Both the position numbers and the translations under genes were made by a program. DNA of 64,000 nt from an uncultured virus (IMG/VR IMGVR_UViG_3300010158_000034) (lineage: Duplodnaviria; Heunggongvirae; Uroviricota; Caudoviricetes): the IMG/VR virus record IMGVR_UViG_3300010158_000034. One strand, written 5' to 3'. The notes below the pieces were generated by a model. That model was not told where the DNA came from and ran no database searches. It saw only the letters and a list, made by a program, of their open reading frames with translations. Positions 17,122-25,806 of the stretch are shown here, piece by piece (position 1 is the first letter of the stretch; every line of letters starts with the position of its first letter).

Positions 17122-18141
17122 ATGACCAACTTATTTAAAAAAGCAGCAGTTTTCACAGACATACATTTTGGCTTGAAAAGCAACAGCACCTTGCACAACG
17201 AGGATTGTTTGGCATTTGTCAAATGGGCCACTGCTCGGGCCCGGGCAGAAGGCTGTGAAACTTGTATTTTTACCGGTGACTGGCACAACAATCGTGCGTC
17301 GATCAATATTCTCACACTGGGCTACAGCCTACGTGCTTTGGAGCATTTGAATGAAAACTTTTCGCAAACATTCTTTATTCCCGGCAATCACGATTTATAT
17401 TATCGTGACAAGCGTGATGTACAAAGTGTGGAGTGGGCCCGACACCTGGCCAACATCCATATTTGTAACGATTGGACTACTATGGGCGATGTTACTATTG
17501 CTCCGTGGCTGGTGGGCGACGACCATAAACGATTAAAGAAGCTGTCCGGCAAGTACATGTTTGGGCATTTTGAACTGCCGGGCTACTTGATGAATGCCAT
17601 GGTGGCCATGCCGGATCACGGTGAAGTCGATCCTCGAACGGATTTGACCGGATTTGAACATGTTTATTCTGGACACTTTCATAAAAGACAAACTAGAGGC
17701 AATGTCACTTACTTGGGCAACTGTTTCCCGCACAACTATGCTGATGCCGGTGACGATGATAGAGGCCTAATGATACTGGAGTGGGATCATGAACCGGTGT
17801 ATCATGCATGGCCCGATCAGCCCAGATATCGTGTGTTTCAACTCAGTGATGTACTCAAGCACACCGAGTCCATGTTGGAACCCAATATGCATGTTAGAGT
17901 TAACCTAGACATTGATATTAGTTACGAAGAAGCCACTTTTATCAAAGAAACTTTTATAGATACGTATAAGTTACGAGAGATTACACTTATACCGGCCAAA
18001 GTGACAGAGTTGTCTGATTACGAAATAGCTGGCAATATTAATTTTGAAAGTGTGGATCAAATTGTGTTTGGACAGTTGAGCAACATCGAAAGCGAACAAT
18101 TCAATAAAAATCTGTTATTAGATATCTATAGGAATTTATAA
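17122..18141 (+). CDS. gp47: Recombination endonuclease subunit (Mre11/SbcD-like)
   Basis: Metallophosphoesterase motifs DIHFG, GDWH, GNHD, GHF and SGHFH. Confidence 0.92.
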   Translation: MTNLFKKAAVFTDIHFGLKSNSTLHNEDCLAFVKWATARARAEGCETCIFTGDWHNNRASINILTLGYSLRALEHLNENFSQTFFIPGNHDLYYRDKRDVQSVEWARHLANIHICNDWTTMGDVTIAPWLVGDDHKRLKKLSGKYMFGHFELPGYLMNAMVAMPDHGEVDPRTDLTGFEHVYSGHFHKRQTRGNVTYLGNCFPHNYADAGDDDRGLMILEWDHEPVYHAWPDQPRYRVFQLSDVLKHTESMLEPNMHVRVNLDIDISYEEATFIKETFIDTYKLREITLIPAKVTELSDYEIAGNINFESVDQIVFGQLSNIESEQFNKNLLLDIYRNL

Positions 18142-19265
18142 TGTCTGACTCTTTTTGTGTTAATCCTTGGATTAGTATGCACTATTTCATGGGCAAACAA
18201 ATTAATCCTTGCTGTTTGTTTGCAGGCGGGATAAAAACAAACAACATCAATGAATATGCCAATAGTACACAATTGGCCAACATAAAACAAAATTTACTCG
18301 ACAATAAAAAAATTAACGAATGTGCTACCTGTTGGAATCAAGAAAGTCAAGGCGGTGTCAGCAAACGCCAACAAGATAATAAAACTTACAAGAAAATATT
18401 TGATTATCAATTTAAAAATCAACTAACAGAACCCAATACCAATTTTGTTGAATACTATGTTAGGTTGGGAAATCATTGCAATATACGATGCACTACCTGT
18501 AACGATACACTAAGTACTGGCTGGATAAGTGAAAAGAAAAAATTCAATTTGCCGTCGGGTCCTGTGCTGAATATTACATCTGCAGATCCAATTTGGCAAC
18601 ACCTCAAAGACCATGCAAAGAATATAGCCAGCATAGAATTCATCGGGGGCGAACCGTTTATGATGAACATCGACGAACAACGCGATTTATTTGATTATTT
18701 TGTAAAGTCCGGCGATGCTAGACATATTAAATTAAAATACAATACAAACGGCACACGTATGCCTGCAGAACAAATAGAATTCTGGAGCAAATTTGGTGAG
18801 ATTGAGTTAAATGTTAGTATGGACGGAGTAGAGAATCAATTTGAATATTTAAGATTTCCGGCAGTATGGTCTGAATTTGATGCAAATTTAACCAAGTACA
18901 AAGAATTGGCCACGATATTACCTAATTTAAAATTAACGGTGATGCACACATTGAGTATATTTAATATTGGGTATGTGCAAAAAACTATAGATTATTGTAA
19001 AGAAAAAGAAATTGCAATATTTTTTAATATGTTACATGCTCCAACTTATTTTAATCTTTATAATTTTACAGCCGATGTGTCTGAATGGATACAAAATCAA
19101 ATCAATGAGGTTGATGATACAACTATTAAAAATATACATGACCGTTTATCAAAGGAACCAGGTTTCTCCAATTCAAAGTTTTTGAGTAAATGCCAAGAAC
19201 TTGACCGTCGTAGAGGATTAAGTATAGCAGAAACATTTCCAGAATTGTACCAATGTTTAACTTAG
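18141..19265 (+). CDS. Radical SAM protein with N-terminal twitch/SPASM-like cysteines
   Basis: CxxxCxxC as CNIRCTTC; GGEP; TNG; N-terminal FCVNPW..PCC and CATCW. Confidence 0.85.
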   Translation: MSDSFCVNPWISMHYFMGKQINPCCLFAGGIKTNNINEYANSTQLANIKQNLLDNKKINECATCWNQESQGGVSKRQQDNKTYKKIFDYQFKNQLTEPNTNFVEYYVRLGNHCNIRCTTCNDTLSTGWISEKKKFNLPSGPVLNITSADPIWQHLKDHAKNIASIEFIGGEPFMMNIDEQRDLFDYFVKSGDARHIKLKYNTNGTRMPAEQIEFWSKFGEIELNVSMDGVENQFEYLRFPAVWSEFDANLTKYKELATILPNLKLTVMHTLSIFNIGYVQKTIDYCKEKEIAIFFNMLHAPTYFNLYNFTADVSEWIQNQINEVDDTTIKNIHDRLSKEPGFSNSKFLSKCQELDRRRGLSIAETFPELYQCLT

Positions 19266-20218
19266 ATCAAATCACTACGTTAGATATTGAAACTATTAAT
19301 AATTGCAACGCTCTTTGTCCTTTATGTCTGCGAGGAGAAGGAATGACCACGAATGATCGATTGGATTGGACTCAAGTAATCAAACAAATACCCGATACTG
19401 TCTGGCAACAGGTTAAAAAAATTAATTTTAATGGCACAACAGGTGACAATCTAATGCATCCAGAAATTGCAGATATTTTGGCATGGGCCATTAACAATAC
19501 CAATGCACAGGTTATTTTACATACCAATGGTAGTTTAAGAAACACCACCTGGTGGGGCAATTTAGGAAAAGTATTTGGTACCAAGCATCGTGTGGTATTT
19601 GGTATAGACGGGTTAGAGGATACTCACAATGTGTATCGAGTAAACACAGATTGGCAAAAAATTATAGATAATGCAAAGGCTTTTATCGACGTAGGCGGCT
19701 GTGCTGTTTGGCAATTTATTATATTTGACCACAATCGGCATCAAATTGATGAGTGCAGGGCATTAAGTGAAAAATTAGGGTTCCGCAAGTTTTTACCTAT
19801 ACTTCAAGATCGATTTGATGCTACTGGGACTCAAGGCCAAATACAACGTGCAAATATCGTCGCAGTACCTGTTGATACTATCATAAAGCCAACTAGCAAT
19901 AATTTCAATAAAAAGAAGTTTACACAAGTAAAAGTTGATTGTCTGAGTCAAAAAACAGGATGGGTCAGCATATATGCAGATGGTACCATATGGCCTTGCT
20001 GTTGGTTAATGGGGTGGCACTTGGCTAAACATCAAAAAACTCAATATGCAATTATCAACTATCATTTTAAGAAAATATTAAATATTGACTTTGCACAAAT
20101 TAGTCTTTATAATAAGACGCTAGAAGAAATTATTGGCAGTGATTTGTGGCAAAAAAGATTTCCAGATAGTTTTAACAACAACCCAAACTTGGTGTGTGTA
20201 CAACAATGTTCAAAATAA
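19253..20218 (+). CDS. Radical SAM/SPASM protein
   Basis: CNALCPLC; TNG; GIDG; C-terminal IYADGTIWPCC and CVQQC. Confidence 0.85.
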   Translation: MFNLDQITTLDIETINNCNALCPLCLRGEGMTTNDRLDWTQVIKQIPDTVWQQVKKINFNGTTGDNLMHPEIADILAWAINNTNAQVILHTNGSLRNTTWWGNLGKVFGTKHRVVFGIDGLEDTHNVYRVNTDWQKIIDNAKAFIDVGGCAVWQFIIFDHNRHQIDECRALSEKLGFRKFLPILQDRFDATGTQGQIQRANIVAVPVDTIIKPTSNNFNKKKFTQVKVDCLSQKTGWVSIYADGTIWPCCWLMGWHLAKHQKTQYAIINYHFKKILNIDFAQISLYNKTLEEIIGSDLWQKRFPDSFNNNPNLVCVQQCSK

Positions 20219-21975
20219 AAGATTTAACTGTAAAAAATTTCATGAGCGTGGGCAACAGCACCCAGGCTGTAAACTTTGACCGTCAAGACTTGACCTTGGT
20301 GCTGGGTGAAAACTTGGACTTGGGTGGAGACGATTCTGGTGCTAGAAACGGCACCGGTAAGACCACCATCATCAATGCTCTCAGTTATGCCTTGTATGGC
20401 AATGCACTAACCAATATCCGTAAAGAAAACTTGATCAATAAAACCAATCAAAAAAACATGATGGTGACTGTGGATTTTGAAAAGGATGGAGAAACTTATA
20501 GAATTGAACGTGGCAGAAAACCCAATGTCATGCGTTTCTTTGTGGGAGATACAGAACGAGAAATCACCGATGATGCTCAAGGTGATTCAAGAGAAACACA
20601 AGCAGAAATAGAACGCATGTTGGGCATGAGCCACGACATGTTCAAACACATTGTAGCACTCAACACCTATACCGAACCATTTCTTGCCCTGCGTGCCAAC
20701 GATCAAAGATCTATCATCGAACAGTTGCTGGGCATTACATTACTAAGTGAAAAAGCTGATCGACTAAAAGAACAGAACAAAGCCACTCGAGATTCAATTA
20801 CGCAAGAAGAATATCGTATCAAGGCCGTGGGCGATGCCAATGTGCGTGTACAAGAACAAATTGAAAACTTAAAGCGTAGACAAACCTTATGGAAGACTCG
20901 ACATGACGCAGACATTGCCAACCTGGAGACGGCGCTCGATCAGTTACTCGAGCTTGATATCGATCAAGAGATTGGGGCACACCGGGCACTTACGGCGTAT
21001 CTTCAAAAGAAGAAAGACATCAGTGACGTACAGTCCTATCTTCGACGTTCTGCACAGGATCAAGTACGTGAAACTAAAGCTATTGAAAAACTCCAGCAAG
21101 AGATCGCATCGCTGCATGACCATCAGTGTCACACCTGTGGGCAGGAGTTCCACGACGAGCGGCATGTACAGGTCTTGGAGGCTAAACAACAGGATTTAAC
21201 TGTGGCTGAAGAAAATTTGATCACTGCTGTCAACGATGTGGCGGCATTTACCGAAGCTGTGACTACATTGGGCGAACTGGGCTCGGCACCTGCTACGTTT
21301 TATGATCAAGAACAAGATGCTGTGCAACACAGAGCCAGCGTGGCCAGTTTGCAACAACAGTTAGCCGTGAAAAGCGAGGAAGACGATCCTTATCGTGATC
21401 AAATTGCAGAAATGCAAAGTCAAGGCATTGAGGAAATTAGTTATGATGCTATCAACACCCTGACCAATGTGCGAGAACATCAAGAGTTTCTGTTAAAGTT
21501 ATTGACTAATAAAGATTCGTTTATTCGCAAACGTATCATTGATCAAAATCTAAGTTACTTAAATGCTAGACTGGGACAATATCTAGACCGTATTGGTTTA
21601 CCGCACACTGTGAAATTCCTTAACGACCTAACTGTAAGCATCACTGAACTGGGAAGAGATCTAGACTTTGACAACTTGAGCCGTGGCGAGCGTAATCGTT
21701 TAATACTTTCCTTGAGCTGGAGTTTCCGCGATGTGTGGGAAAGTTTATATCAACCCATCAACTTGTTGTTTATAGACGAGTTGATTGATTCCGGGCTTGA
21801 CTCATCGGGAGTTGAAAACAGCTTGGCTATTCTTAAAAAAATGTCCAGGGAAGGTAATAAATCAATTTGGCTGGTAAGTCACAAGGATGAACTGGTTGGT
21901 AGGGTCAACAACACTCTTAAAGTAGTTAAAGAACACGGCTATACCACTTACAACACGGATGTAGAAATTGTATAA
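20206..21975 (+). CDS. gp46: Recombination ATPase subunit (Rad50/SbcC-like)
   Basis: Walker A NGTGKTT, zinc hook CHTC, signature LSRGE, Walker B LFIDE and H-loop VSH; start refined to the ATG at 20206 (MFKIKDL). Confidence 0.92.
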   Translation: MFKIKDLTVKNFMSVGNSTQAVNFDRQDLTLVLGENLDLGGDDSGARNGTGKTTIINALSYALYGNALTNIRKENLINKTNQKNMMVTVDFEKDGETYRIERGRKPNVMRFFVGDTEREITDDAQGDSRETQAEIERMLGMSHDMFKHIVALNTYTEPFLALRANDQRSIIEQLLGITLLSEKADRLKEQNKATRDSITQEEYRIKAVGDANVRVQEQIENLKRRQTLWKTRHDADIANLETALDQLLELDIDQEIGAHRALTAYLQKKKDISDVQSYLRRSAQDQVRETKAIEKLQQEIASLHDHQCHTCGQEFHDERHVQVLEAKQQDLTVAEENLITAVNDVAAFTEAVTTLGELGSAPATFYDQEQDAVQHRASVASLQQQLAVKSEEDDPYRDQIAEMQSQGIEEISYDAINTLTNVREHQEFLLKLLTNKDSFIRKRIIDQNLSYLNARLGQYLDRIGLPHTVKFLNDLTVSITELGRDLDFDNLSRGERNRLILSLSWSFRDVWESLYQPINLLFIDELIDSGLDSSGVENSLAILKKMSREGNKSIWLVSHKDELVGRVNNTLKVVKEHGYTTYNTDVEIV

Positions 21976-22804
21976 GGTCTTGCACATCGAACCCACTGAT
22001 GTTTGTCACGCCACTTGCGCCTTGTGTGCTAGAGAAACCGATTCAAATTTTGATAAAAATAAAAAACATCATTTGTCTGTGGATCGAATCAAAGATAAAT
22101 TTGACACTGAATTTATAAAAAATCTAGACAAAATGTTCATGTGTGGCAACTACGGCGACCCAGCTGCTGGAAAACATACTTTAGAAATATACGATTACTT
22201 TAGATCCGTTAATACTGAAATTACACTAGGCATGAATACCAATGGTGGCATTCGCGAATCTTGGTGGTGGACTCAAATTGGATCAATATTCAATCAACCG
22301 CGGGACTATGTTGTATTCAGCATCGACGGACTAGAAGACACCAATCGTATATATAGAAAAGGTGTAAGTTGGAATGTTATTATGGCCAATGCTCAAGCAT
22401 TTATTGTTGCAGGTGGCTCAGCACATTGGGACATGTTGGTGTATCGGCATAACGAACATCAAGTTGATGCTTGTGAACAACTGGCACGTGACATGGGATT
22501 CAAATGGTTTAGAGCCAAAGTGAGTCGACGTCCGCTGGCCAATGGATTAGAGTATCCCATCAAATGGCAATCACCTTTAGAAAAAACTGGTACTGTAGAG
22601 TGTTTTGCGTTAAACGAACAAAGTATATACATAGATGCTCAAGGTCGTGTTAGCCCGTGTTGTTGGCTAGGTTCTAGACAACAGGATTTTGATTTTAAAG
22701 GGGTTGCCACTGCATCAAATCCTGTATGCCGTGCAACATGTAGCACCCATAGTAAAAAAACTACATTTACTGCACAATGGCAACGTGAGGTTGAACTATG
22801 CTAG
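21968..22804 (+). CDS. Radical SAM/SPASM protein
   Basis: CHATCALC; GNYGDP; SIDG; IDAQGRVSPCC and CRATC. Confidence 0.85.
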   Translation: MYKVLHIEPTDVCHATCALCARETDSNFDKNKKHHLSVDRIKDKFDTEFIKNLDKMFMCGNYGDPAAGKHTLEIYDYFRSVNTEITLGMNTNGGIRESWWWTQIGSIFNQPRDYVVFSIDGLEDTNRIYRKGVSWNVIMANAQAFIVAGGSAHWDMLVYRHNEHQVDACEQLARDMGFKWFRAKVSRRPLANGLEYPIKWQSPLEKTGTVECFALNEQSIYIDAQGRVSPCCWLGSRQQDFDFKGVATASNPVCRATCSTHSKKTTFTAQWQREVELC

Positions 22805-23802
22805 CCACCTGGCATTTTCATATCGAAATATCTAGTAAATGTACACTACGTTGTCCTAGATGTGCTAGACAAGAAGTTCCCGACACACTGGTCAATACTG
22901 AACTGGATTTAGAATTCTTTAAACGTAACTTTACAGCAGAATTTATTATAAACAATGTAGAAAAGATCACCTTCTGCGGCGACGACGGAGATCCTGTATA
23001 TGCACATGACTTGATTTCTGTAATACATTATGTTAAAAGTGTCAAACCGGTGGAGTTTGTCATCATTACAAACGGTAGCTATAAGCGAGCAGAATGGTGG
23101 GCAGAGCTGGGTGCTATGCTAACAGAAAAAGACACTGTACACTTTAGTATAGATGGATGGGACAATGCCAGTAATAATTTATATCGTGTAAACAGCGATT
23201 TCAACAGCATTACCCAGGGCATAACAGCATTGAGAACCGCTAGCCAATGTCGCTTGATATGGGCCGCTATAGCATTTAAGTTTAACCAAGAATATCTAGG
23301 ACAAATGAAAAACTATGCTGCTGCATTGGGGATGGATGCGTTTCAATTGACCAAAAGTACCAAATTTGGCAGTGTATATCCCAGTTACGGTGCTAACGAT
23401 CCGTTAGAACCCAGTGATAAATTTGTCAGCAACACACTTAGATTTGAACGAGAGCAAATCGATTTTACCAATCGAGCACCTGTCACGCACCCAATTAATT
23501 TTGAATTATATACTCAGAATCAAGATAGAACACCGGTGGTACCTTTGTGCGAAATAGGTAATAAAGGATTATACATAGATGCTCGCGGTAGATTATTTCC
23601 GTGCTGTTGGGTAGCTAATAGGTATAACCACAATCAAGAATGGCAAACATTAGCAGAACAGTTCGATTTACACCACCGTACATTAACAGAGGCTTTATCC
23701 AGCAGTTTTTGGAGAGAAGAATTTCAAACATTCAAGTGGCAAGAATGCCAAACAAAATGTTCCGCAAGGGTCGTAAATCAAGATTATGCGACACAGTGGT
23801 GA
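22798..23802 (+). CDS. Radical SAM/SPASM protein
   Basis: CTLRCPRC; GDDGDP; SIDG; IDARGRLFPCC and CQTKC. Confidence 0.85.
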   Translation: MLATWHFHIEISSKCTLRCPRCARQEVPDTLVNTELDLEFFKRNFTAEFIINNVEKITFCGDDGDPVYAHDLISVIHYVKSVKPVEFVIITNGSYKRAEWWAELGAMLTEKDTVHFSIDGWDNASNNLYRVNSDFNSITQGITALRTASQCRLIWAAIAFKFNQEYLGQMKNYAAALGMDAFQLTKSTKFGSVYPSYGANDPLEPSDKFVSNTLRFEREQIDFTNRAPVTHPINFELYTQNQDRTPVVPLCEIGNKGLYIDARGRLFPCCWVANRYNHNQEWQTLAEQFDLHHRTLTEALSSSFWREEFQTFKWQECQTKCSARVVNQDYATQW

Positions 23803-23821
23803 TCGATGATAACTACTATGC

Positions 23822-24274
23822 ATGACATGGCTATTCAAAAACTCTCTTGTAGAAACCTTACCCGAAGACTGTGTTGGATTTGTATATCTTATAACAAATT
23901 TAACTACAGGCAGGAGATATATTGGCAAAAAATTAGCCAAGTTTGCAAAAACAACTTACAAGACAGTGAAATTAAAAAACGGCACCAAGCGAAAGAAAAA
24001 GATTAGAAGTAAGATCGATAGTGACTGGCAATCATATTACGGATCAAACGCAGAACTAAATGCAGACGTGGAGAAATTAGGCGTTGACAATTTTTCAAGA
24101 GAAATACTATACTACTGCAACAGTAAAGCTGAATGCAGTTACATAGAAGCAAGAGAACAATTCAGACACCAAGTCTTGGAATCAGACAATTACTACAATG
24201 GCCAAATAGCCTGTAGAATCCATGGCTCTCATATTAAAAATAAAATAGACACCCGGTCGACAGTAACAAACTAG
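23822..24274 (+). CDS. GIY-YIG endonuclease, T4 EndoII (DenA)-like
   Basis: GFVY...YIG, YYGS, conserved Glu (YIE) and YYN motifs; 150-aa single domain with a Lys-rich insert. Confidence 0.8.
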   Translation: MTWLFKNSLVETLPEDCVGFVYLITNLTTGRRYIGKKLAKFAKTTYKTVKLKNGTKRKKKIRSKIDSDWQSYYGSNAELNADVEKLGVDNFSREILYYCNSKAECSYIEAREQFRHQVLESDNYYNGQIACRIHGSHIKNKIDTRSTVTN

Positions 24275-24660
24275 CACAGGTTAAACTCGTGTGCCTATGA
24301 CAACCGGATAATAACGGGGACGGAAGACTCTTGCTGTCAAGAGCACTCAATCAGTATCCTTGACAGGACCATGATCGGATATGCCTATAACCGGTTTGAT
24401 TGTTTGAAAAGTAGTAGGAACAGGCTAAAAGAGTGGGTAATGCCCACACGTGGTTAAATGTGTTAGCGTATGTTTAACCGCCGCCGTTGTATAAAGACAG
24501 AACGAGCAGGTACCGGACAACCGCCTGTGTGTACGCAAGTACGTAGTTCTAACGCTAAGTGACTGGTTCAACTCGGATGAAGCAGATCATTTTTGCCCTT
24601 GAGCGGGCAAAGTGTGACCAAAGAATCTGGATGAAACGGGAAGCAAACTGCTTTCGTTAA
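24272..24660 (+). ncRNA. Candidate large structured non-coding RNA, class unassigned
   Basis: No ORF of 60 aa or more in the track; more than 10 helices found by hand, including long-range pairs, G-U wobbles that favour the + strand, a GCAA tetraloop, and a 7-bp loop pseudoknot (24463-24469 with 24552-24558). Confidence 0.65.
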
Positions 24661-24664
24661 TAAT

Positions 24665-24718
24665 AAAAAAAAAGATTTCTGAACGAAGTGAAAGAAATAG
24701 ATTAGCTCTGCTAATCTC
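24665..24718 (-). terminator. Putative rho-independent terminator for the gp26/gp51-like transcript
   Basis: On the minus strand, two hairpins (AGATTAGC/GCTAATCT and ATTTCT/AGAAAT) are followed by a run of 9 T. Confidence 0.55.
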
Positions 24719-24739
24719 AAAAGGATAGGCTCGAAGAAA

Positions 24740-24967
24740 TCAAAAGAATGGCATACCCGATTTGTTTGTGACTTCCATGTTTTCTTTTATCAGTTTGGCT
24801 ATCAACTGTCGTTCTTCTGTACTCAGTTCCATGGCTTCGCTGTAAGTGAGACCGCCACGCATGTACCAACAAAAACTAAACAACTCGGCTTTCAAGGCTT
24901 TTGACTCCTGCTCCATTTGATCCAACCACTTGAAAACTTCTTCAGTGGTTAGAGTCAAAAGCCTCAT
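24740..24967 (-). CDS. gp51-like baseplate hub assembly / tail chaperone C-terminal ORF
   Basis: WYMRGGLTYSEAMELSTEER motif; ATGA overlap with the upstream gene, and in its -1 frame. Confidence 0.65.
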   Translation of the reverse strand: MRLLTLTTEEVFKWLDQMEQESKALKAELFSFCWYMRGGLTYSEAMELSTEERQLIAKLIKENMEVTNKSGMPFF

Positions 24968-25806
24968 TCGAAAAAATTTGATTGATTGAATGTTAGAGTA
25001 TTTTCAAATTCTTTTTGACAACTGTTGCACACAATCTTCAAAGGTTGTACTTTGAATGTATCCACTAGCGACTGTATGTGGTCCTTGATTTGATTGTAAA
25101 CCTGTCGGCTGCATTGATCTAAAAACTCAGTGATTTGAGCACGATCTTTAACTACAACTCCAGTTTCGGTTTCTATGCTGTTGATGCTTACAACAACTGA
25201 GTCTATGTTCATTTGTCGCAACTTTTCAAAGCTGGCGTTGAATTGGGCTGTTTTTTCTTCCTGTGACAAAGACTCGTTAAGTATCACTGAATCCACCAAT
25301 CTCTGCTCTTCGTAGGTTATGAGTCCTGCTTGATTTATATCTTGATAGGTTTGTGGGCGGAAATGAAATTGCAATCCATCAATAGTAACCGGAGACGAAT
25401 AGTCTGCTGTTTCCAGTCCATCCAGCACGCCTGTCAAATCCACTGTGTATTCATCCTGTACCCGGCAGTGAGCACAGGTGCAGTTGATGTCCATGCCCTT
25501 GCCGTAGCTGGCCAAACGTATGGCAATAAAAACGGGATCCAAATCCACTGCTGGCATGGTCCACGGATCGCGAATGTTTGGGCAGCAACTTTTAATAACA
25601 TTGATTATTCCCTCCCCGTTCATTAGTGCATCTGGAGTTTTCATTGTTAACTCGTCACGCACAGTCATAGGATACACGGGAATTTCCCCGGTCACCGGTA
25701 GGTCTATAGTGTTGTCGGGGTAAAAACGTCCGCGACTGGGTAGTTTTAAATAAATTGCTGGTTGTCTAAAATGTCCGGATAAGGGATTGTTAGCGGGGTT
25801 TGCCAT
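24964..25806 (-). CDS. gp26-like baseplate hub / tail assembly chaperone
   Basis: LKLPSRG, PMTVRDE, IRLASYG, two CxxC pairs and a C-terminal NFF. Confidence 0.7.
   Translation of the reverse strand: MANPANNPLSGHFRQPAIYLKLPSRGRFYPDNTIDLPVTGEIPVYPMTVRDELTMKTPDALMNGEGIINVIKSCCPNIRDPWTMPAVDLDPVFIAIRLASYGKGMDINCTCAHCRVQDEYTVDLTGVLDGLETADYSSPVTIDGLQFHFRPQTYQDINQAGLITYEEQRLVDSVILNESLSQEEKTAQFNASFEKLRQMNIDSVVVSINSIETETGVVVKDRAQITEFLDQCSRQVYNQIKDHIQSLVDTFKVQPLKIVCNSCQKEFENTLTFNQSNFFE

Follow-up and report, generated by a model that had tools for sequence, protein, structure and literature searches.

A large structured RNA with twin sequence words lies behind interchangeable nuclease genes in T4-like jumbo phages and may mark a start site on its own DNA

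Downstream of a compact GIY-YIG nuclease gene in an uncultured T4-like phage lies a structured RNA of ~380 nt that also occurs behind a nuclease of another fold, or with neither nuclease. By sequence comparison this element is a well-supported but unexplained large RNA. In the reading that we prefer, for which the chances seem to us evenly balanced, what is conserved is a cis-acting RNA gene and not a nuclease–RNA pair: the RNA would pair back onto its own DNA and open a start site for replication or packaging, and the nuclease would be a replaceable branch cutter. An earlier sequence-only reading had proposed a cognate two-component system of nuclease and RNA, possibly acting at a replication or packaging initiation site; the site is adopted here as the best reading, its operation through a cognate pair is not. 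Positions refer to the window, that is, the whole stretch of 64,000 nucleotides analysed, and the features are collected in Table 1.

The window belongs to a T4-like phage whose nearest record (G001) is a 152-kb fragment estimated to be 43% complete; complete relatives measure 320–355 kb. Genes run in the order late sigma factor, gp47 and gp46 nucleases, radical-SAM genes, GIY-YIG gene, gp26-like/gp51-like pair and portal, with the gp26-like/gp51-like pair convergent to the GIY-YIG gene and the RNA; the label gp51 for the partner of gp26 is our presumption. Pairs of radical-SAM-type genes lie behind both gp47 (18141–20218) and gp46 (21968–23802), and the gp46–nuclease junction is an insertion hot spot for such genes. 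On the minus strand, a TTTTTTC run occurs at the gp26/gp51 overlap (24960–24985). The late-promoter-like word that had been noticed ahead of the nuclease ATG proves to be above chance: an ATAACTA-type word immediately precedes the start in 104 of 174 GIY-YIG loci compared with none of 174 control windows, and before 23 of 65 starts of the PD-(D/E)XK gene that replaces the GIY-YIG gene elsewhere, again with none in control windows. This word probably drives nuclease and RNA as a single transcript. A sigma-70-like site within the nuclease ORF (24084–24113, score 11/12) was rejected as a promoter; it is not conserved, with an equal score in 4 of 145 homologues. As read from the sequence, nuclease and RNA are not separated by a terminator, no plus-strand terminator-like site being found in 23500–25000; a minus-strand one lies at 24717–24699, and the A/T-rich zone at the end of the RNA may also terminate the minus-strand operon that converges on it. 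A 304-nt contig from one lake metatranscriptome equals 24111–24414 with zero mismatches at a depth of 4, such contigs being uninformative on strand, ends and level.

That a structured RNA adjoins the nuclease gene is borne out by a match to the Rfam family RF01718 (Polynucleobacter-1) at 24269–24405, which scores 92.3 bits against a gathering cut-off of 37 and spans the whole model (positions 1–141). This model accounts for no more than the 5′ third of the RNA. Conservation runs to ~24640 and further hairpins extend to 24716, past the end first proposed. Folding of the single sequence is modestly better than that of shuffles (z −2.1), and the structure is proven by covariation rather than by this fold. 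Helices and four pseudoknots were derived from mutual information among 111 non-redundant type-A sequences, picked without regard to the twin words described below. In a separate 40-sequence alignment, which has two helices partly out of register and, because the structure was derived from overlapping sequences, serves as a check and not as an independent test, 36 of 50 named pairs changed on both sides and 89.6% of cells pair; none of 500 shuffles reached this level and slid controls gave 7–12 pairs. G-U combinations exceed A-C (531 vs 148), which identifies the plus strand as the RNA strand.

Two pseudoknots of the 5′ domain, 24259–63/24334–38 and 24270–72/24279–81, are absent from the Rfam model. 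The core comprises a long hairpin (24449–24482) whose loop pairs with 24553–58, a near-invariant block (24484–24525) containing a pseudoknot (24486–90/24517–21), and a closing helix (24500–03/24546–49); changes on both sides are seen in 6/6 pairs of the loop pairing, 3/5 of the block pseudoknot and 4/4 of the closing helix. A self-complementary GGTACC at 24508–24513 is near-invariant in the core of types A and B and is a possible dimerisation loop. At the variable position of the core (24530–24545), long A/T-rich hairpin insertions are found in L119 (820–941), L019 and L043. RNAs of types B and C fill the slot of the type-A 5′ domain with non-homologous domains, and these other subtypes have no Rfam match. 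Among the large RNAs, ribozymes and introns of Rfam 15 (ROOL, GOLLD, OLE, HEARO, group I/II, tmRNA), searches of the window and 54 loci returned only RF01718 and one tRNA, and ARAGORN returned nothing in the window. A match of the core pattern in L145 was discarded as chance. The first 5′ pseudoknot strand (24259–24263) lies within the last codons of the nuclease. The sequence-only reading had built the TAG stop into the first RNA hairpin; its G alone does lie in the first stem, but this is not a conserved design, because in 24 of 25 adjacent type-A homologues with a placeable RNA the first RNA motif begins at or after the stop. By this comparison, the overlap is a C-terminal extension peculiar to the source lineage.

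Table 1. Features of the nuclease–RNA locus, in window coordinates
Feature	Position	Strand	Basis or remark
ATAACTA late-promoter-like word	23809..23815	+	6 nt upstream of the nuclease start codon; candidate promoter
Stand-alone SegE-type GIY-YIG nuclease, 150 aa	23822..24274	+	PF19835, phrog_447
Basic β-hairpin insert, residues 43–64	23948..24013	+	model strands 40–50 and 56–66
RNA 5′ domain, type A (Rfam Polynucleobacter-1)	24259..24405	+	profile and covariation
RNA core	24406..24558	+	mutual information and covariation
Twin word copy 1, ACTC + GGATGAA	24571..24581	+	identical to copy 2 in the type-A set
Hairpin between twin words	24593..24610	+	sequence varies by RNA type, hairpin retained
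Twin word copy 2, ATCT + GGATGAA	24625..24635	+	joint change with copy 1
A/T-rich zone with three short hairpins	24640..24716	.	one c-GNA-g mini-hairpin here, 24684–24690

Profile searches agree with the sequence-only description of the nuclease as a catalytic GIY-YIG domain and nothing else: PF19835 matches residues 3–129 (E 2e-33, 115.6 bits vs a cut-off of 25) and phrog_447 matches with E 5e-38. Residues Y22, Y33-I34-G35, E109 and N126 are invariant among 48 sequences, so that the GIY/YIG-type motifs and the catalytic Glu and Asn are kept. The predicted model (pLDDT 90) has its best fold match in the I-TevI catalytic domain (Z 8.4, rmsd 2.7, 82 aligned), with EndoII at Z 5.1; Foldseek gave nothing at E 0.001 or better, and searching the sequences of solved structures turned up no useful match to the GIY-YIG or the PD-(D/E)XK nuclease. 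The SegE-type family is very large, taking in all 8000 of 8000 scored candidates, and a relative is found in 494 phage records. The PHROGs label 'NAD synthetase' on phrog_447, repeated in many phage records, looks like a propagated misannotation. The very basic insert is confirmed and modelled as a β-hairpin; its length is the same in 72 of 72 scorable close homologues, including four RNA-less loci, and it is 6 residues shorter in distant RNA-linked homologues. A homodimer through residues 126–136 is predicted with a score of 0.62, a level attained by 20 of 30 solved homo-pairs and 1 of 23 single chains, compared with 0.00 for the best of three controls; contact agreement between runs was 100% with pLDDT of at least 89. 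This prediction may reflect resemblance to solved dimers. In L148 (1983–2420), a deletion fuses the GIY-YIG protein after residue 115 into the RNA, with loss of the catalytic Asn and the RNA 5′ domain and retention of the core and twin words; it is a natural mutant or an assembly error.

Viral loci retrieved through the RNA, with enough upstream DNA, carry a GIY-YIG gene in almost all cases. Three of them (L127, L214 and L254) instead have in the nuclease slot a PD-(D/E)XK protein that matches PF24608 and phrog_244, the latter annotated as RusA-like resolvase. Conversely, among 80 loci retrieved through the PD-(D/E)XK protein none has a GIY-YIG gene within 5 kb, and nearly all sit in the same gp46 / RNA / gp51-gp26 slot. 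Across 257 non-redundant viral loci, chosen as best hits and not as a random sample, GIY-YIG accompanies the RNA in 173, PD-(D/E)XK accompanies it in 55 and both nucleases occur together in none. The remainder were set aside: GIY-YIG without detected RNA (7), PD-(D/E)XK without (11), RNA with no nuclease in view (10) and neither (1). Inspection by eye places further RNA subtypes in nine of the 11 PD-(D/E)XK loci that lack a detected RNA; the other two stop short of the position where the RNA would be expected. The nuclease fold switches 17 times on a tree of gp46 from 191 loci, compared with a shuffled mean of 51. The PD-(D/E)XK gene is absent from five GIY-YIG records, three of them at least 99% complete; of five PD-(D/E)XK records, two have weak, partial Seg-like matches elsewhere. 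The slot behaves like that of a replaceable resolvase, as we infer from the phrog_244 annotation and the swap.

These counts bear directly on the idea that the GIY-YIG protein binds the RNA through its basic hairpin as a dedicated guide, scaffold or inhibitor, with a dimer holding the two twin words. The nuclease–RNA junction is the tightest in the neighbourhood, an inserted gene being present in 31 of 221 loci compared with 108 of 196 at the upstream junction and 101 of 187 at the downstream one, and the two basic hairpins of the predicted homodimer would match a two-fold RNA. But the same RNA types stand behind PD-(D/E)XK in 55 loci and do not diverge by nuclease type (likeness across nuclease groups 0.69, within groups 0.69 and 0.72), and identical twin words are found with both folds. 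Nuclease and RNA also part in the other direction. A complete 164-kb phage of another group (G014; loci L041, L069, L073 and L076) carries a 74%-identical GIY-YIG gene with the same insert outside the gp46 slot, and three profiles, which could miss a diverged subtype, find no RNA in it; this suggests a recent transfer of the gene without the RNA. There is no room for an RNA behind distant nuclease homologues in 3 of 3 cultured phages viewed. Nor was an outside target found for the twin word: this word with three flanking bases is confined to the locus in four of six records, with scattered extra matches in two, and the word is neither avoided nor enriched in six genomes. Independent occurrence of RNA and nuclease, which the sequence-only reading had itself named as one result that would speak against a pair, is what is observed, and we regard the dedicated pair as very improbable. 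Its subsidiary claim of co-transcription fares better: inserted ORFs at the junction lie on the same strand in 31 of 32 cases and displaced RNAs have a late word of their own in 2 of 31, so that transcription of both from the promoter of the nuclease is supported as the simplest account.

The RNA is found without either nuclease in 16 of 16 chromosomal integrative elements and in the 30-kb phage G007. The chromosomal regions (L545–L560) are elements of 7–9 kb with late-promoter-like words, two of them being present in some genomes; RF01718 scores above its cut-off in 17 of 151 Polynucleobacter genomes, and the 3′ module of the RNA is present in Rhodobacteraceae contigs from 4 of 401 genomes. 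Genes for an integrase and a small tyrosine recombinase, together with two genes of no recognised function, are common to all 16; DUF6641 is encoded in 13 and a clamp-loader-like ATPase (phrog_168) in 12. In all 16, (C/A)TAAATA lies 351–402 nt before copy 1 of the twin word, with a per-locus chance of at most 0.02. Several neighbouring genes in the elements begin MKxxEI, which we take to resemble the start of capsid-targeted proteins of T4-like phages. The elements are likely to be satellites of T4-like jumbo phages. Among 18 element proteins scanned no initiator gene was recognised, and two conserved proteins of 260 aa and 250–290 aa that belong to no family could be initiators or RNA binders. 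Of the small phages, G013 (L425–L426) has the RNA followed by GIY-YIG, in reversed order, and its relative G007 (L332–L333) has the RNA and neither nuclease. The co-occurrence in G013, an unrelated small phage, favours the dedicated pair and hints at a closer tie than our preferred reading implies, which counts against that reading. In both of these 30-kb tailed phages the RNA occupies the sole non-structural region, upstream of methylase and terminase genes, and no polymerase, primase or helicase is evident by eye in their ORF lists. Plasmids gave no match for the two RNA types queried, nor did cultured phages for the RNA. Bacterial genomes yielded 45 pattern matches; the ones that lack an RNA body, in which the two words mostly differ, were put down to chance.

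The 7-nt twin words at 24575–81 and 24629–35 are identical to each other in 111 of 111 type-A RNAs. Parsimony places 37 changes on each copy, all 37 of them joint, and no mixed pair is seen among the 111. Over all RNA types the six-mers are identical in 245 of 247 cases compared with 45 expected, the fixed flanks being imposed by the search pattern. The words are all purine-rich, differ wholly between families, and lie 47–74 nt apart with no helical phase. In the chromosomal elements the words are unrelated to these, and the copies are still identical in 12 of 16 and non-identical in four. No third column covaries with the words in type-A RNAs, and no third copy or complementary partner holds a position within 3 kb at 249 loci. 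Each of four jumbo records examined contains one copy of the module. Behind copy 2, c-GNA-g or GNYA mini-hairpins occur on either strand in 197 of 231 loci, compared with 13 after shuffling and 25 in the RNA body. Hairpins of the c-GNA-g type are far more stable as DNA than as RNA and are present at the G4, ssiA and N4 initiation sites, according to PMC13037366.

Identity kept regardless of sequence points to base pairing or copying and not to a protein reader. Were it kept by copying, the words would mark where a template jump, a circularisation or a self-processing step takes off and lands, and the RNA would be a template or ribozyme; rolling-circle reverse transcription of the DRT2 RNA is the model. 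Perfect joint change without intermediates and a near-invariant pseudoknotted core of ribozyme-like complexity would suit such a mechanism. It is nevertheless improbable in our view, since no reverse transcriptase is found among the conserved neighbours of the RNA in phages and elements, the window and 54 loci have no Rfam ribozyme or intron match, and the one RNA library, at low depth, shows no joint at the twin-word site.

A third account, possible if rather unlikely, makes the product a free trans-acting late RNA, such as a decoy, a scaffold or an RNA-only multimer of the ROOL/GOLLD/OLE kind, next to which the nuclease is merely a promoter-lending neighbour; the twin words would join by like-with-like base pairs or be read by a dimeric host or phage protein, and the terminal hairpins would be terminators. 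A large, pseudoknotted and modular RNA with interchangeable 5′ domains and a near-invariant self-complementary GGUACC in its core is what this account leads one to expect, and the convergent operon requires a terminator at the hairpin zone. The absence of a skew origin at the locus in six records, where GC and AT skew follow gene orientation, favours this account too and weighs against the preferred one. However, mixed pairs would be expected of a protein reader that accepts either G or A, and there are 0 of 111; the words are also wholly different between families. Mini-hairpins with c-GNA-g triloops on both strands are characteristic of DNA, and they are kept in elements with other neighbours. 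The sole RNA library that contains the region gave a low-depth contig, which cannot rank expression.

We return to the reading of a self-pairing RNA that marks a start site. During transcription from the late-type promoter, the folded RNA would present copy 1, which as RNA is complementary to the template strand at copy 2; pairing there just behind the polymerase would keep the DNA from re-closing and leave a persistent R-loop with single-stranded mini-hairpins. The potential pairing is just 7–9 bp because the three bases before the words invariantly differ between the copies (CTC vs TCT). The wobble direction at position +7 was rejected as evidence for which copy pairs, since it mostly reflects one inherited G/A difference (90 of 108); the mismatch in L481 has the opposite wobble direction. 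The plasmid searches without a match for two RNA types, the four elements whose twins are not identical and the two family-less element genes that could encode initiators or RNA binders also weigh against this reading. The upstream nuclease, of either fold, would be a dimeric branch-cutting enzyme standing in for T4 endonuclease VII, and may cut branched DNA at the site by recognising DNA shape and not via a dedicated scaffold. Integrative elements and small phages would retain the site to borrow jumbo-phage machinery. That the site is the start of DNA replication in the jumbo phage is conceivable, if somewhat doubtful; T4 origins use middle promoters, and a late-type promoter therefore fits a T4-style origin poorly. 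That it is the packaging start, which we judge unlikely as a specific outcome, is suggested by the late-type promoter, since T4 packaging too depends on the late sigma factor, and on endonuclease VII as its resolvase (PMC3012670). The same source links the T4 packaging start to late transcription, synapsis of like sequences and a resolvase at the portal, and differs from the present case in that its available part describes no structured RNA at pac. A search for endonuclease VII had no match in five records and was silent on controls too.

Known systems resemble parts of this locus. Polynucleobacter-1 is matched over its entire length, yet the model represents the 5′ third of one subtype and lacks two pseudoknots, the core, the twin words and the mini-hairpins. 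Its original description reportedly mentions a conserved phage-like gene nearby. Weinberg et al. 2010 (PMC2864571) table the motif, with its 16 members, as a probable cis-regulatory RNA found in Burkholderiales; in the present case it belongs to an RNA of jumbo phages and satellite-like elements. A second comparison is with ColE1 RNA II. Like it, the locus has a folded transcript of several hundred nucleotides and no recognised initiator gene, and a persistent hybrid is proposed; unlike it, the promoter is of late type, variable twin words take the place of G-runs, and there is no sequence or Rfam match and no match in plasmids. In ColE1, an upstream RNA segment is said to pair with a similar stretch of the template close to the origin. 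The RNA is 550 nt long and forms a persistent hybrid with no initiator protein (PMC5043065). OMEGA systems (IscB-ωRNA/HEARO, TnpB-reRNA), the comparison drawn from sequence alone, likewise have a compact nuclease gene that a structured RNA abuts and partly overlaps. Here, by contrast, the nuclease is GIY-YIG or PD-(D/E)XK and not RuvC/HNH, can be replaced or absent, and occupies a fixed syntenic position and not a transposon; the searches with the twin word brought up no variable guide matched by a target outside the locus. By profile the nuclease is a member of the stand-alone SegE-type family (PF19835, phrog_447), and its fold matches those of the I-TevI catalytic domain and T4 EndoII; it differs in its longer basic hairpin and, in this clade, in its fixed slot after gp46, where it alternates with PD-(D/E)XK; distant cultured members have no adjacent RNA slot.

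The name of the motif leads in the literature only to PMC2864571. Within the main texts covered, which include PMC10690425 and two 2026 preprints and leave subscription journals outside, the full RNA, the twin words, the nuclease swap and the elements are undescribed. As far as these texts and the sequences go, the 5′ third of the RNA has been known since 2010, and the full-length RNA, twin words, swap and elements appear to be new. We put forward with considerable reserve the wider picture of a self-targeting RNA family in which a changeable 7–9-nt word pairs onto its own gene, either of two unrelated dimeric nucleases can cut the branched site to start replication or packaging, and satellites of T4-like jumbo phages copy the site to hijack the helper.

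An orphan Rfam motif of 2010 thereby gains a full-length structure and a home in abundant aquatic jumbo phages, and the locus cautions against taking every compact nuclease next to a structured RNA for an RNA-guided system. If the preferred reading is true, a second natural design of an RNA that holds its own DNA open would be at hand, a satellite family would have its likely helpers and hosts identified, and the locus would show how a large uncultured clade of T4-like phages starts replication or packaging.
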